64,000 bases of DNA, taken from Turneriella sp. (GTDB lineage: Bacteria > Spirochaetota > Leptospiria > Turneriellales > Turneriellaceae). The stretch's first letter is position 1. Each line of letters opens with the position of its first letter. Of the stretch, positions 45,001 to 51,000 are shown one piece after another. Location of the stretch: positions 96,001 through 160,000 of the forward strand of contig CBDIID010000003.1 of assembly GCA_965279515.1 (NCBI GenBank). Reading direction: 5' to 3'. Made by a program: the position numbers.

Positions 45001-48000
45001 GCCTATCGGGTGTAGTGTTCCTGTCAGTTCCGTCGAGGTGAATTTTGGCCCCTTCGGTGTCACTACCCGAAGGCAACCGAGACGGCCATTTAGATGGTCA
45101 AAATGATATAATACTAATGACGGAGGGCTTTCTGGGTTAATGGCCTCAATAATATAGCTATTAAATCCAGAACAAGTTCCAGTATACGGTTTATCATTTG
45201 GGACAACTACTGCCTCAGTCATTGATTTCATATATACGATACTTATTGTCGGTTCTGTTTGTGAGGCTCCGCCAGTTTGGCGAAAAACGGACTTATTATG
45301 AACTTCAAGCAAAATATAAGGCGGATTTACGCGATATAAGCGAATCTCTATGTCCGAATGTTCAATTCGTTTTCCAAGTTGAAATTCTACTGTTACTGAT
45401 TTTTCGAATTTATTAATTTCCTCAGCGGAAAGCTCTGGCGCCATATCACTCTTTAAGACGGCCACGACACTTTTCTTAAAAATCTTGAGCGGCAGCTCCT
45501 TCGGTTCCATGAAGTTACCGGACCAATTGCTTGTCAGGAGGGTGAGTAATATTAGCAGCATATGTCGCCCAACGTTGGAATTACCTGACGTCGATGGTGC
45601 GCCGCACCATAAATGCGGTTTTCTTACAAGAGCCGCTCTTGGCGCGCCATCGATGTGCCGCAGGTGGCTGCGTTGCGCCCGCCAATTAAGCTCGATAGAG
45701 CGCGGGCGTCAACGCATTTCAGGCCACCGGAGGCCGAGCACGCGAGGACCCACGGGACCGCAGCGAGCGCAGCAGGTAATTCTTGTTGTCTGAAGTAATT
45801 GCGCCTGTGAGCCCGGGCAGGGAGGCTCGGGCGACGACGAACCAAGTCCCAGAATGATCCAAAATGCTGACTTTTAGTGTCATAACTAGTCATTTTGTCA
45901 CCCTGTAGAAGAGGCTTTACACCTGAGGGATCAGGTGGTCGCGTCGCCTTTGGTGGGGATTAATTTCCTAAATGTTAAGTACTTGCCGTCACATGCGGCA
46001 CCAAATATATTAAGTGCATGAGCGTTGAGACATTGGAGAAAGCACAAGAATTCGCTGCAAATCTGACAACAGAGGAAAAAACGCAGTTGCTTGATTTTCT
46101 ATTGGTAGACCTGCAAAATGAAAATGTCGAGATCAGTCCGGCATGGATTAAGCAAATAGAAGAAAGTGAAGCAGAGATGCTCTCAGGCCGCGATCCCGGT
46201 GTGCCTTGGGCAGAAGTGCAAACGAATATGCGTCGAATCATCGGTGGCTCTTGAAGCCAGTCATTTTTAGCCGCCGCGCAAACGCACACACCGACTCGAT
46301 CACGAAAGCTTACAGGGATGTTTCGGTATCTGCCGCAACGAAATTTGAGAAGGCCATCAATGTCGCCGTCGGTCATATCACTCTGCAGCCGAAAGCGTGG
46401 GCAAATTTTCATACGCACTATCGGAAATTCATTTTGAAACCGTTTCCTTACGCCATTGTGTATCGGGAGCTAAATGATATTATTCGTGTTCTTGAGATTG
46501 TAGATTTGCGCCGCGAACCGGGTTACTGGCTGAAATAGACCTGAAACCGACTTGCCGCCATTCTGAATGACAAACTTTTCGCCTGAAAGTTTGGGGACGG
46601 CCACCAGATCTATTGAGGAATCATGTTCTTAAATGCTTATTCCATACCGGACCAACTGCGTCGGCACGAGGCCGACGAAGTACAAAGGCGCAATTATTTC
46701 AGACAACGTGGAAAATACCCGAATTGCGCCCTCGCGGGTGTAAAGTGCAAATAAACACGGTTTATGTGACTTTCGCGGGAGCGCATTTGCCCGTAGCGCC
46801 TCGCGAGCCCGCCAATGCAGGCCCAGTGGCCTGCGGGCGTAGCGATCTTCGGCGCGTAGGGCCGAGCACGCGACCCAACGTAGTGGTCGCGGCGCAGCGG
46901 GTATTTTTTGTTAGCCGCCGTTACCGGATTCGCGCGGCTGGCGAGCAACCCGAAGGTCGGCGATATGCTGTAGTTCGATATTATTAGTAACCGAGGAGTT
47001 GTCGCCAGGATCAAAGGCGTAAGCAGCGAAATCTGGCTGTACTCTCTGATAACAAATCCTCTTTTTCTCCCCTTCGGGCGCGAAGGAGGGTACAATATCA
47101 GAACATCGGTAACGAAAAGTCATCACGACATCGGTAACAGTTCTGCCTCAGGCTTTGCCGTGGTTTCCTCCTGATTTGGTGTAAACAAATAATTGTTCCG
47201 ATCGATGTAGCCCAATAGCAGGCTACCGAAGTAGACGTCGATGCGCATGTCGGCGATAAACCGGAGCCCGATCGGGTAGCCGTTAAAAGAATTGCCGATA
47301 AATATCCGGTGCTGCTTGTAGTTGGTGTAACCGCGGTCATTTACGATGCGTACGATGCAATCCTCAGGGTAGGCGGGTAGTACGTCGCCAGTATACGGAA
47401 TTTCAGATGGTAGGTAGAACTCTGATGGCGTCCTCATGCCCAGGGCTTCATGCGGTCGCACATTGTTGAAGTCTTCGCGCCACTGATCAAACGAAATCTG
47501 GTGAAGCTTTAGATCACCGCGAATGCGCCCCTGCAGTTCCGTGCGGATGTCTCTGTGCATACGCTCATGGCCACCATTCTGGGCTGGCTTTCCCGGATCA
47601 ATGCGGTCCAGAGAAATTCCCAAGGACAGCCACCAGACTGACAATTTTGTCAGGCCAAAGAGGCCCCACGATGATGCGAAAGGAGTTCCGTTGTCAGAGC
47701 GAATAATTTCCGGCAGACCATAGCGTTTGAAGAGTCTGGCAAAGTGTTGTTTTACATTGGAAATATTGCCCTTTTCCAGTATCTGTATCGACAGGATGTA
47801 CTTACTGTACTCATCGCGAACTGTCAGAGGTTCGCATTTCTCTGCATGTGCAGTATACCACCACCCCTTGAAATCAACCGTCCATATGTGATTGGGATGC
47901 GTCGCCTTTTCGCGAAGCATCAGCCTCTCTCCGGTTCTGCGGCGCTTCTTTCCTCTTGGCCTTGTCAGACCAGAGCGCGCCAGAAGGCGATCGACTGTAG

Positions 48001-51000
48001 GCACTGAAATATCGCCTTTGCGCTCGGGGTAAAGCCTGCAGAAGACCGCATAGATCTTCTTGGCTCCCCAGCGAGGCCTGTTATTCTTTATGCGAATAAT
48101 GTCGCAGATTGTTTCTTCGTCAGTGCGGTTCGGATTGCCTCCTGGTTTTCGTGACAACTCCGCCAATCCAGCTAAGCCTTTTTCCAGAAACCTTGCCTTC
48201 CACTTGTACCCTGTCTTGGTGCTGATGCCAAACTCGCGGCACAGCTCTGTGAAACTCTCTACGCCCTCCAGGGCGCGAAAGACAAAAGATCTTTTCTCTT
48301 CCATTTTGGTAACCTCTTTCCACGGCATTTGAGCCCCCTGCCGAAGGCAGGCAAAAGCTCTTTGCGAAGCAAAGTGTTACCGATGTCTTGATAGAAATGT
48401 GTTACCTATGTCGTGATAGTACCGGAGGTAATGGTGGCTAACGTGGAATTTACCTGACGTTTGGTGACACTTGTGTCATTAATTCAATCAGGAAAGCCGA
48501 TTTGTGTCACCAAATGTGCCCGGAGCGCCTCGCGGCAAAGCACAAAACAAGCGTCCCGCTTGTGCTTTGTCCGCGATCTTGGGCGCGCAGGGCCGAGCAC
48601 GCGAGGAGCTACGGCACCGCAGCGAGCGCAGCAGGTAAATTTTGTTGGGCGATGTGCGCGATGGATTAGTTAGTCAGCAACAACTCTTAAGGATGTCTCC
48701 ATCTGGATGGCCATTTGGCTCAACTCTATTAAAGACGACAAGCAGGAATCGGTAGACTCATTAATTCCCTTAAGTGAAAGGCACTCTGCCTTGAAGGCCT
48801 CAAGCTCGGCAAACACTATAACAGAATCGGCCCAATAATCGGCAAGTCTCTGAAAAATCTGGCAGGATTTCTCTATGGCCTTCAGTCGTAATGCCTCATG
48901 ATCGCCAAGTCCCATGGAGACAAACTTTATGTCGTCACCTGGCACTGAGCCTGCTATATGAAAATCTAAGCCCATAGTTCAAATGGAGTTAATGTAATTA
49001 ATTATCATCGCCGTGTTTTCCATGTTTATCTCTGAAATTTGGGTAAAATATATCATCCAGTCGCGATAAGATCTTTCATCAGTGACCTCGCCAACAGATG
49101 ACCGAGACACATCTGTAACATAAGAGGCTCCTTTTTGGTGCATTTCCATTAGGGCATTTTTCGCTTTTCTGCGAAATGCAGAGGTTCTTATCAAATAGTA
49201 CAGAAGGTTTCGCTGATTCTTAATGCGAGTCAGGGCGGCGGCGGCCTTAGAATATTCTGAAATAAGTTCCTTATTGTTATCTGCAATGGCGGCTTGGTTA
49301 AGGATCGGATTCTTAAGTAGCTCGGATTGTCTATGTCGGAGTCCCGAAATATTCTCCAGAGCTTCCTTTTCATTAGATTGCAGAATCAATAGCTCCTGCA
49401 CCGCATTTATAAGTAAGTCCTTTTGGTTTCTTAATATCGAAAATCTCTTGTTGTAAGCGATCGTGACAAAGCAGACGATAACTATATTCAGAAAAAGATT
49501 GGCTACGGCAATTAGATCAACCGTTTGATTGATTTTGAATCCAGTCAGCAGATGTCGGAAACTATATGCAACTGCAAAAAAGGCCGAAATTAAGAGAAAA
49601 GTAATCAGGACCCGAGTCTTCATATTTCTTCGCGCATTTCGCCCAACGTGGATTTTACGCTGACGTTTTTTGACGCTTGTGTCATTTATTCAGTCTGTAA
49701 AGCCGATTTGCGTCAAAAAATGTGGTCGTAGCGGCTCGCGGCGACGCGCGAAAACACACCTCCCGGTGTGCGCGTCGTCCGCGATCTTTTGCCGCGGAGA
49801 CCCGAGCACGCGAGGAGCTACGGCACCGCAGCGGCGCAGCGCGTAAAATTTGTTGGCTGCCGTAGCGAAGCTACATGCCCATTAGAGTAATTAAGCCTGA
49901 TTTCCTTTCTTCCAACCATTTCATTAACTCTGAAATTGTCTGTACTAGTGTAACTTTGTTTTTGTGCCAATTTGGCATCAATATATTCTCAGCGTAATCA
50001 TCTTGCATCACATTAGAAAGCGGCAAATCTGAGAAGCTTGAATTCTCGGCCTCGAGCTTCTTTTTTAGGATTTCCAAATCCTTAATAATCTGAGTCGTTT
50101 CTGCTTCCCTCATCTCCATGAAAGCATAGTGGTCATAATTTCTAATTGCATTCTGAAAAATCTTTTCTATCGTAATTATTGCTTCTTCACTTAGGAAAAC
50201 GGAAGTTGCATTCCAGCATTTATCTTGATATTTGCCAGGGTAAAACTCAAAATAACAGGTTCCTTCCAATTCAGAAACCTCGGTTATTAATCTTAAATCG
50301 GGCTCAAATTCTTCTGGATTCATATTGATTCTTCGCTATGGCAGCCAACGTTGGATTTTACGCTGACGTTTTTTGACGCTTGTGTCATTTATTCAATTTG
50401 TAAAGCCGATTTGCGTCAAAAAATGTGGTCGTAGCGGCTCGCGGCGACGCGCGAAAACACACCTCCCGGTGTGCGCGTCGTCCGCGATCTTTGCCGCGGA
50501 GACCCGAGCACGCGAGGAGCTACGGCACCGCAGCGGCGCAGCGCGTAAAATTTGTTCTCTGACGTAGTTGCGCATGCGAGCCCGGGCATGGAGGGCCGGG
50601 CGACAAGTAGACCAGGCTCCTCGCCCTTTAGCGTTTTAAAATGAAAATCTGTGTTGCCGCTCTATGTTTGGCCAGAAAAAAATCCATTACTGATACAGAA
50701 TTTAAGAACTATTTATGAATTATTTGCTTCTCCTGTTTCTGCTCCTTGCATATCCAATAGAATTATTCACCATGCAACCTTGTAGGTCTAATGAGATTAA
50801 AACGGAACACATCGGACTTGCGCCCATTAGCCTCAATGCCGGCTACCCGCAGATTTTATCAGTGCGAAGCGGATTCCTTTTTGATTTTTTGGAAAATCCA
50901 TGTGAGAGATTCGCCCTGGATATTTATGTTGAGCCTGGAATTACTGGTGCCAAGGGCATATTTGCAGTGAGTTTGGAAGGTTATTACTCAGGTATTTACG

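Follow-up and report, generated by a model that had tools for sequence, protein, structure and literature searches.

Several groups of mobile elements aim at the recombination sites of other elements. ISAba32 and ISAjo2 of the IS1202 family, known as dif-site hunters, lie 5 bp from XerC arms with the left end facing them, and contact with the recombinase itself is only proposed in the available text of these reports (PMC10132070; 10.1101/2022.12.17.520857). IS1111-attC elements (ISKpn4, ISPst6) are an insertion sequence (IS) lineage specialised on cassette recombination sites; the accessible part of PMC11187229, citing Tetu & Holmes 2008 and Post & Hall 2009 for the group, describes a DEDD enzyme, an IS-encoded guide RNA and insertion within one attC end. 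The res-site hunters Tn5053/Tn402 combine a TnsB-like DDE transposase with oriented insertion at a recombination site, need TniB, TniQ and a serine resolvase, which for Tn5053 is that of the target site, and lose the duplication in replicative events (PMC7765201, in the portion available). Group IIC-attC introns likewise parasitise attC, as retroelements of unrelated chemistry (PMC3001079, in excerpt). The attC parasites known so far are IS1111 elements with RNA guidance and group II introns, and the single-gene DDE site hunters described to date target dif. The lineage described here joins attC parasitism to DDE site hunting, with no helper, no guide and one-base precision. The literature searched contained no such aim for this type of transposase, and no IS481 member aiming at attC turned up.

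The element lies in a window of 64,000 nucleotides of a Turneriella sp. genome (contig CBDIID010000003.1, positions 96,001 to 160,000). The closest described system is ISAba32/ISAjo2. Shared features are the one-gene DDE organisation, a TnsB/Mu-like domain order, an extra internal repeat at each end, a left end at a fixed distance past a tyrosine-recombinase arm in fixed orientation, remnants of the left end alone at that distance, and copies without duplication. The target differs (an attC-like cassette site instead of dif/pdif), as do the duplication (3-4 bp instead of 5-6 bp) and the ends (GGT...ACC instead of TGT...ACA). The element also falls outside the IS1202 family, scoring 33 bits with NF033594 (cut-off 250) and having R262 instead of Q as the seventh residue after the catalytic E255. 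An analogy to IS1111 elements, drawn in the initial annotation, fits poorly: the enzyme is DDE, the insertion makes a duplication, and there is neither a long non-coding region nor a target-matching stretch. Because it sits 16 nt outside the repeat and lacks a guide-RNA region, the element is unlike IS1111-attC and closest to IS1202/ISAjo2. Tn5053/Tn402 differ in needing helpers where this IS has one gene, and IS21 differs in the IstB ATPase gene beside its transposase, though the fold here resembles IstA.

Assignment to IS481 held in part. The IS481 model NF033577 was the best of four NCBIfam families, scoring 209.8 bits under its cut-off of 224. The element shares HTH and rve domains with IS481, and its 3-4-bp duplication lies inside the family range (2-15 bp, mostly 6; PMC10045372) outside the usual 6. 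However, its ends are not the 5'-TGT...ACA-3' stated for IS481 (10.1101/2022.12.17.520857), and it has twin subterminal repeats. Plasmid relatives of ~40% identity are annotated as IS481. From sequence comparison, the element can be filed approximately as IS481-like rather than as a family member.

The element and its insertion sites

Target duplications and empty sites fix the GGTAC...GTACC termini and a length of 1,335 bp, replacing the initial bounds of 47088-48413 (Table 1). The GTGATAGTACC terminus, first read as the right end, lies upstream of the transposase gene, at the left end. The single ORF joins HTH and DDE (rve) regions (domains HTH_28/29/32, a weak LZ_Tnp_IS481, rve and rve_3) with a TnsB/IstA/MuA-like fold, has no IS3-type OrfA/OrfB frameshift and is without an ATPase partner gene. 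Non-coding DNA amounts to ~95 nt upstream and ~35 nt downstream, mostly terminal repeats. A promoter search near the ends gave one weak internal match against 1.4 expected.

Table 1. Positions of the element, its target and related sites in the window.
Feature	Position	Strand	Remark
Insertion sequence, 1,335 bp	47089..48423	-	ends GGTAC...GTACC
Transposase, 401 aa	47123..48328	-	HTH, HTH, DDE core (D152, D212, E255), beta-barrel
Left terminal repeat (IRL)	48401..48423	-	end facing attC-like site
Second, internal GACATCGGTAAC motif copy, left end	48376..48387	-	25 nt inward; putative transposase-binding site
Right terminal repeat (IRR)	47089..47113	-	
Internal motif copy, right end	47127..47138	-	overlaps last transposase codons
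Target-site duplication GGAG, attC-proximal copy	48424..48427	.	minus-strand positions 13-16 after GTT
Target-site duplication GGAG, distal copy	47085..47088	.	
Interrupted cassette, first 16 nt	48424..48439	-	outer arm of R' site, intact
attC-like repeat upstream of IS	48440..48646	-	R' box G|TT at 48440-48442, minus strand
Interrupted ORF-less cassette, body	46913..47088	-	
attC-like repeat of interrupted cassette	46705..46912	-	
Empty site, ORF-less cassette	15283..15308	-	single GGAG
Empty site, ORF-less cassette	19542..19567	-	
Empty site, ORF-less cassette	59702..59727	-	
Empty site for copy at 60640	12790..12814	-	single TGCG
Empty site for right-end junction of copy at 40711	13325..13349	-	
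IS copy	1813..3147	-	15 nt from repeat at 3163 (box AAT); flanks from two different cassettes
IS copy	40711..42045	-	16 nt from repeat at 42062; hybrid flanks
IS copy	60640..61974	-	16 nt from repeat at 61991; duplication TGCG
17-nt left-end remnant	63283..63299	-	16 nt from repeat at 63316; heads cassette with 334-aa ORF

BLASTN and tBLASTN searches of the genome confirmed seven full copies (99.1-100% identity) and one diverged copy (93.7%, without right end, abutting a truncated repeat), as initially annotated, in two arrays and one orientation. All eight lie on the minus strand of contig C3 at 89-158 kb and 3,740-3,766 kb, and the searches found none elsewhere in the genome. The first count had overlooked two exact 17-nt left-end remnants (that in Table 1 and C3:3,734,349-3,734,365), each 16 nt from AAC. 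Among 125 scored array sites, a perfect 17-mer lies 15-16 nt away in nine; the next best has six mismatches, leaving no weaker end remnant below that number. All ten left ends lie inside cassette arrays and none at dif/pdif, the chromosomal dif site not having been located. Location in arrays adds little beyond location at attC: of 155 repeat matches, 129 are array-borne, and an intact R' motif remains in only five of the other 26. An end-pattern search of five genomes of the same genus gave no copies or remnants beyond those in G007 and G008, and no relatives were confirmed in viral contigs.

The distance to the AAC box, initially given as 8-20 nt, is 16 nt in five of the seven full copies and 15 nt in two, one of which has AAT as its box. 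Across the nine left ends adjoining an intact repeat end, all of which keep the offset at an unconstrained cut-site sequence, the counts are seven and two. By chance, one insertion would land so with a probability of 2.6e-5 across the genome and 8e-4 inside arrays. Target-site duplications, previously unresolved, could be read in five copies (4 bp in four, GGAG, TGCG, TAAG and CGCA; GAG, 3 bp, in one), and the flanks of two of the seven full copies do not match. A 15-16-bp duplication, possible in IS481 relatives, was ruled out by empty sites giving 4 bp. Since empty sites exist, the loci are true insertions; the IS interrupts cassettes known in empty form and is itself no separate cassette. 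In the copy at 40711, the right-end junction begins exactly at position 13 of the intact cassette at 13325, and one joint in metagenome contigs (run X2) skips 1,339 bases, or 1,335 + 4. The data describe a staggered cut of 3-4 bp that falls 13-16 positions past the G|TT crossover, with the left end toward the site and the transposase gene in cassette direction. The IS interrupts the beginning of the following cassette rather than the repeat, and the recombination arm stays intact. Site- and orientation-specific targeting is near certain, which upholds the initial proposal of a DDE transposase aiming at the cassette boundary and extends it to a spirochaete clade.

Arrays, recombinases and relatives of the element

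The repeats carry AAC...GTT boxes, can fold and have complementary cassette ends, as attC sites do. With the G|TT crossover, an attI-like head and, in G007 and G002, a divergent recombinase, the arrays resemble integrons and CALINs (PMC4889954, PMC3607928, 10.1101/2022.02.06.479319), differing in branched sites of ~210 bp and in an unlinked recombinase without the IntI-specific domain. No classical extrahelical base was clear in three folded sites. None of the four tyrosine recombinases of this genome is a canonical IntI over cut-off. IntI with its additional domain (TIGR02249) had no match over its cut-off of 265 bits in this and 15 other genomes; scores ranged from 161 to 220 bits, with model positions about 182-230 unmatched in most. 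Most host genomes searched encode an IntI-like recombinase without the extra domain. In G007 an attI-like site beside the recombinase heads the array. Here the attI-like heads lie at C3:170,673 and 3,805,399, and the closest recombinase homologue, at C3:2,926,093, is unlinked. Recombinase identity between G000 and G007 is only 38% while the DNA arm is conserved.

Among relatives of about 50-100% transposase identity in the spirochaete clade, the box recurs at unchanged spacing at 61 of 68 distinct loci, compared with 0 of 86 outside. The offset persists even in transposases only about 50% identical, and an unrelated metagenome added two new flanks at 16 nt (contigs; runs with small shares were left out). 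Over 51 loci, which include L146 from outside the clade (it follows the CGTT rule through its own tandem repeats), conservation after GTT ends at about +9/+10, with G+5 at 98%, A+8 at 100% and T+9 at 75%. Starting the count at TT gives a conserved arm of 11 bp, with the cut another 3-7 nt further on. The sister group inserts 22-23 nt away (+19-22) in opposite orientation; within the clade itself, L081 and L129 have the IS reversed. L192 has arm and IS without a repeat upstream, and L135 has the IS at an attI-like head. Out-group relatives lie at short tandem repeats in 46 of 77 cases, and Leptospira relatives have apparently TGT on the left and ACC on the right. Clade-typical residues cluster in the transposase beta-barrel (clade versus outside: R332 100% and 11%, N336 89% and 3%, N346 93% and 0%).

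How the insertion site might be recognised

We favour, as a plausible reading that falls a little short of probable, that the transposase docks on a tyrosine recombinase bound to the R' arm. The R' end would act as an Xer-like double-stranded site consisting of an arm, a centre and an 11-bp arm starting at TT, and the bound protein might be the short IntI-like recombinase or XerC/D. A transposase contact, probably through the beta-barrel, would then set side, distance and orientation just past the arm. Some arms match published XerC arms (Table 5 of PMC10132070, in the part available), and beta-barrels of IstA and TnsB dock on partner proteins according to the accessible text of PMC11208146. 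The fixed offset at unconstrained cut sites, the insufficiency of the short arm motif, the clade-typical residues in the barrel and the IntI-like recombinases of most hosts also fit this reading, and ISAba32/ISAjo2 and Tn5053 serve as precedents. Several observations count against such docking. The recombinase should bind R'' too, and the IS never uses R'', a mirror arm with -4 and +8 as its sole differences from R'. The substrate of canonical IntI is folded single-stranded attC, not the double-stranded form. Widely differing recombinases occur beside a conserved DNA arm. The reversals in the sister group, L081 and L129, and the missing repeat at L192, count likewise.

The unused R'' would be explained more simply by a protein that reads DNA. 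It is possible, if somewhat unlikely, that the transposase itself (beta-barrel/core Asn/Arg) reads the R' arm without a partner, as CGTT-R-NNN-G-NN-A-T in double-stranded DNA cut 3-7 nt beyond. The arm is within reach of the cut, G+5 and A+8 are conserved at 98-100%, and R332, N336 and N346 are clade-typical. One-sidedness would follow, because A+8 and C-4 distinguish R' from R''. L192 has the arm without a repeat, but may be an IS-bearing cassette later moved by the recombinase. The short motif is insufficient alone, because only 81 of its 568 genomic occurrences lie at array sites; the other 487 stand against 0 of 10 IS ends outside arrays, and an inner arm supplying the added specificity would lie ~26-36 bp from the cut.

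Attack at the base of a hairpin or cruciform, most plausibly in an excised circle, in which pairing between the cassette's two ends continues 13-15 bp beyond GTT, appears distinctly improbable. Complementarity of cassette ends (116 cassettes) is 0.73-0.91 per position to +15, except +8, and drops to 0.47 at +16, close to the cut. The repeats fold strongly, the bottom strand better, and the out-group taste for tandem repeats hints at a preference for structured DNA. Yet circle stems of ~13, 15, 15, 16 and 19 bp all yield the 16-nt offset, and a symmetric hairpin base would not alone select a side. In array context, pairing beyond the box is ~0.5 for +1 to +7 and ~0.3 past +9. This pairing varies and the offset does not, which speaks against recognition of a repeat folded in situ. 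L135 and L192 are no valid exclusion of hairpin recognition, as the recombinase could have moved them later.

Random insertion, with insertions elsewhere selected against and spread of one or two IS-bearing cassettes by duplication, is very unlikely and in the main already refuted. Arrays are tolerant DNA, two copies share the same ORF-less cassette, and the G058 and G066 copies share left flanks. Against this stand four different duplications, three with empty sites, the two independent metagenome flanks at 16 nt and the same offset at about 50% identity, which also answer the earlier concern over cassette duplication; inside dispensable cassettes, neither a one-base offset nor an orientation would be fixed by selection. 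RNA guidance shares its target class with IS1111-attC (PMC11187229, as far as available) and is the most improbable, given a DDE instead of DEDD enzyme, scant non-coding DNA, no Rfam match in the window and a longest IS match to three target regions of 7-9 nt, inside the ORF.

Wider reading and proposed array remodelling

A broader picture can be drawn, possible though leaning doubtful. The elements may represent a one-protein DDE family with modular target choice, in which the clade uses +13-16 through the beta-barrel, the sister group +19-22 reversed, and distant relatives 6-8-nt tandem repeats. The attC hunters among them might parasitise and reshape widespread, apparently undescribed integron-like systems with recombinases lacking the IntI domain, and so give rise to hybrid cassettes, divided arrays and perhaps novel cassette starts. 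If true, the IS would provide an integrase that needs no helper and inserts in one orientation at a fixed offset, and it would mark a hidden class of arrays, which IntI-based tools would score as without integrase. There are dozens of natural targets. Because close relatives differ in offset, orientation and target, site finding by a lone DDE enzyme is testable by domain swaps.

The IS would be carried along with cassettes whenever the recombinase moves them, and offers a route to array deletion, splitting and hybrid cassettes. With every target and copy facing in one direction, intramolecular transposition or recombination between copies could delete array stretches, leaving hybrids in which the IS joins the start of cassette A to the body of cassette B. 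At 23 of 33 loci no matching cassette end was found downstream, where some cassettes may outrun the fetched flank. Many IS-bearing cassettes are hybrids and the IS would therefore also remodel arrays, as in G058 and G066, where identical cassette starts precede different bodies.

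Position of the element at attC-like sites

Insertion of the IS481-like element (IS) beside cassette repeats is real, more precise than first described, and general. BLASTN with the originally marked stretch as query recovered seven full copies (99.1-100% identity) and one of 93.7% identity without a right end, reproducing the seven near-identical copies and one diverged copy of the initial annotation; that census had overlooked two exact left-end remnants. Neither tBLASTN nor an rve_3 family search found an additional copy in the genome. All full copies measure 1,335 bp, run from GGTAC to GTACC and carry a 401-aa minus-strand ORF; the motif GACAT(A/C)GGTAAC occurs twice at each IS end, spaced 25 nt. 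The end adjoining the repeat, previously called the right end, is the left end. It lies 16 nt from the AAC box in 5/7 full copies and 15 nt in 2/7, not at the 8-20 bp given earlier. The exact left-end 17-mer is present at 15-16 nt at 9 of 125 array sites scored, the next best site having 6 mismatches. A tenth left end, that of the diverged copy, adjoins the interior of a truncated repeat and is an exception to the offset rule. The chance of such a position per insertion is 2.6e-5 genome-wide and 8e-4 inside the arrays.

The copies are insertions. Target duplications, left unresolved earlier, measure 4 bp (GGAG, TGCG, TAAG, CGCA) and, read on the minus strand, occupy +13 to +16 past GTT, while one copy has 3 bp (GAG); duplication lengths of IS481 elements are treated in the available text of PMC10045372. 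Empty sites match 3/4 of the 4-bp cases (10, 1 and 11 matches), with none in the TAAG case. In two copies the left and right flanks derive from different cassettes, and the right-end junction of the copy at 40711 begins exactly at position 13 of the intact cassette at 13325. Among contigs of 4 of the 22 listed runs, run X2 has the empty form, its joint skipping 1,339 bases (1,335 + 4), and in difference and joint tables moss metagenome X5 contains a nearly identical IS beside two further left flanks, each read as 16 nt from AAC. The distinct duplications and empty sites argue against the earlier caveat of spread by cassette duplication, although the GGAG and GAG copies may be one event, later duplicated.

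Locations of the features discussed (C3, contig CBDIID010000003.1; the window covers C3:96,001-160,000; L-numbers, collected loci)
Feature	Location	Details
Full IS copy	window 47089-48423	1,335 bp, GGTAC to GTACC; 401-aa ORF on minus strand
Left-end remnant, exact 17 nt	window 63283-63299	16 nt from AAC
Left-end remnant, exact 17 nt	C3:3,734,349-3,734,365	16 nt from AAC
ORF-less 188-bp cassette	window 15100-15310, 19360-19570, 46913-48439, 59520-59730	
attI-like heads of the two arrays	C3:170,673 and 3,805,399	
Distal end, first array	C3:90,770	IS end of diverged copy
Distal end, second array	C3:3,734,343	24-nt IS remnant adjoining ilvD-like gene
Other transposase gene	C3:91,863-92,879	another rve type
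Other transposase gene	C3:93,329-94,416	split IS5-like
IntI-like gene loci	L234:1-1300, L246, L248, L249, L087, L090; C3:2,926,093	
GAAC-N7-GAAC direct repeat	C3 about 2,927,200; L234 about 1,170-1,200	just 5' of IntI-like gene
Out-group tandem repeats, examples	L030, L031, L034, L042, L063, L083, L084, L143	

Targeting across the lineage

The fixed-offset insertion habit is lineage-wide. GTDB genomes supplied the best 80 of 102 relatives and metagenomes the best 80 of 581; others came from 41 related genomes and from 41 genomes that share the genus of G003, a Leptospira (22 of these 41 had a match). In a tree of 212 proteins, 103 mostly spirochaete loci form a targeting clade (FastTree support 1.0; SH-aLRT 99 in a quick IQ-TREE run of 74 rows). 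Once 27 loci whose left flank could not be seen and 8 duplicates were set aside, 68 remained for scoring. In 61/68, a gap of 25-30 nt separates the end of CGTT from the first terminal motif, which puts CGTT about 15-17 nt outside the IS; in this count kin are non-independent, many loci are Leptospira and six positives are the studied genome's own copies. The seven misses are two copies of that genome (one with an AAT box, one diverged), the reversed L129, three loci with damaged left ends and L133, apparently off target. Outside the wider clade, CGTT has that spacing in 0/86 loci (12 lacked a flank). The offset is equal despite 50-68% transposase identity (16, 16 and 15 nt at L099, L104 and L115), and 5/5 IS copies in genome G001 lie at such sites. 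In the sister group of genome G002 the orientation is reversed, 22-23 nt from the box, in 8/10 loci examined, and 9/12 copies lie inside the array adjoining an IntI-like gene.

The transposase has HTH and rve domains (Pfam) and scores 209.8 bits on NF033577 (IS481) against a threshold of 224. Its predicted structure (pLDDT 85.8) comprises two helical bundles, a DDE core and a beta-barrel; the IstA barrel features in the accessible text of PMC11208146. The closest structures are TnsB, IstA and MuA, at TM-scores of 0.3-0.4 that are low because the domain arrangement differs. Comparison of 28 targeting-clade with 65 other rows, thinned to <80% identity, mapped clade-typical residues to two regions, one at 163-193 and one in the barrel (N330, R332, N336, R341, N346, F348). 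Part of this signal may be plain shared ancestry, and N330 is present also in the non-targeting relative L100.

Among out-group relatives (Verrucomicrobia, Planctomycetes, Myxococcota, Acidobacteria), tandem repeats of 6-8 nt lie at most 60 nt past the right end in 46/77 distinct loci, and in 15/1,040 control windows and 1/60 attC clade loci. The repeats vary between copies of one IS and therefore look like the target of a second targeting habit within the same transposase family. One relative adjoins a CRISPR-like array in a Sumerlaeia MAG (L029:1,400 onward). Another (L039) stands reversed next to an attC-like repeat, on a contig assigned to Nitrosarchaeum and possibly mis-binned.

Recognition of the site

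The insertions have a set position, orientation and duplication, and they leave the R' arm at the G|TT crossover intact. Sequence conservation after GTT stops near +9/+10, and the cut therefore falls just past the 11-bp arm beginning at TT. Some of these arms coincide with XerC arms already in print: the G002 inner arm ACTTCGCATAA is identical to one listed in PMC10132070 (Table 5), and the Leptospira outer arm TTATGCGAAAT mirrors an arm of this kind. The R' ends of L018-L027, L016 and L201 read as Xer-like arm-centre-arm sites.

We tentatively favour docking of the transposase on a tyrosine recombinase bound to the R' arm, because folding in place does not seem to set the position and the short arm motif, with 568 genomic sites of which 81 are at array repeats, is too frequent. 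Available portions of the literature propose recombinase contact for IS1202 elements (10.1101/2022.12.17.520857; PMC10132070) and report use of a target-site recombinase by Tn5053 (PMC7765201, which also covers res-site hunters). Direct reading of the R' arm by the transposase, which seems rather unlikely, would account better for the mirror arm at R'', never used by the IS and bearing G at +8 and T at -4. Folding of the repeat in place, one of the two forms of recognition first proposed, is disfavoured as position setter: pairing past the box is poor and variable in the array context, and in the excised circle one offset goes with stem lengths between about 13 and 19 bp.

The closest parallel is the IS1202 family, whose elements, in the text available, have their left end nearest to XerC arms at a distance of 5-6 bp, leave left-end remnants and insert by an unknown mechanism (10.1101/2022.12.17.520857; PMC10132070); by that family's tests, however, the present IS falls outside it. 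IS1111-attC elements are RNA-guided, according to the accessible part of PMC11187229. Site hunting by a single DDE transposase has precedent. No description of this class of target, this lineage or the host's integron-like system was found in the literature searched; titles and abstract openings described neither a DDE element aimed at attC nor this cassette system, with subscription literature thinly covered, and a named member may exist.

Cassette arrays and their recombinases

Of 155 repeat matches (nhmmer), 129 belong to two arrays, one with 76 and one with 53, whereas the other 26 are scattered and for the most part degenerate. From AAC to GTT the core usually spans about 205-217 bp. Across 116 cassettes, one end is complementary to the other as far as about +15, except at +8, where the mismatch is constant, and repeat type moves with the cassette, as minus-strand crossover at G|TT predicts. 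The longest cassette ORF is on the minus strand in 57/94, on the other in 31 and absent in 6. Related attI-like heads open both arrays. The ORF-less cassette has at least 10 intact occurrences in the genome, plus two with IS. At L135:1,100-1,500, an IS-bearing cassette immediately follows a near-consensus promoter (TTGACA-17-TACAAT) and an attI-like head.

G007, a genome of the same genus, has a similar attI-like head with a divergent 366-aa tyrosine recombinase on one side and an array of these repeats on the other (21 matches in the 20 kb next to it). The homologue closest to this recombinase in the studied genome (38% identity, C3:2,926,093) is unlinked to the arrays. Names of homologues accord with the Turneriella assignment of the studied genome. 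We name the sites attC-like because these recombinases, best matched by NF040815, reach 161-220 bits on TIGR02249, below its cut-off of 265, and skip the IntI-specific domain region, and no match over the cut-off occurs in 16 genomes searched. The IntI-like gene is divergent in G007 and G002, points the same way as the attI-like site that follows it in L087, L090 and L249, occupies the far end of the array in L248, and is unlinked in the studied genome (G000), G066, G058 and G072. In several of G000, G007, G066, G058, G072 and G001, an IS-bearing array lies about 1-190 kb from an xerD-like gene, the IntI-like gene often being distant. The GAAC-N7-GAAC repeat resembles a LexA box of direct-repeat type. 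Such recombinase and array systems had no description in the literature searched, which included the available text of integron sources (PMC4889954, PMC8618304, PMC5905569, 10.1101/2022.02.06.479319); as of 2013, Treponema was the only spirochaete clade with integrons according to the part of PMC3607928 available.

The IS probably rides cassettes, since L218, L226 and L227 have 17 nt in common yet different preceding repeats. It also appears to remodel arrays, because an automatic rule detected no duplication in 30/46 loci with both flanks, the matching downstream cassette end is absent in 23/33 (some may lie beyond the stretch seen), and at its distal side each of the two arrays stops at an IS end, which suggests IS-mediated truncation or splitting. 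A TnsB-like enzyme without TnsA would be expected to transpose replicatively, as Mu does. Replicative transposition with every target in the same orientation would create deletions and hybrid cassettes, and recombination between IS copies could generate the same products. Two further transposase genes, each in single copy, sit where the first array ends distally and do not obey the 16-nt rule.
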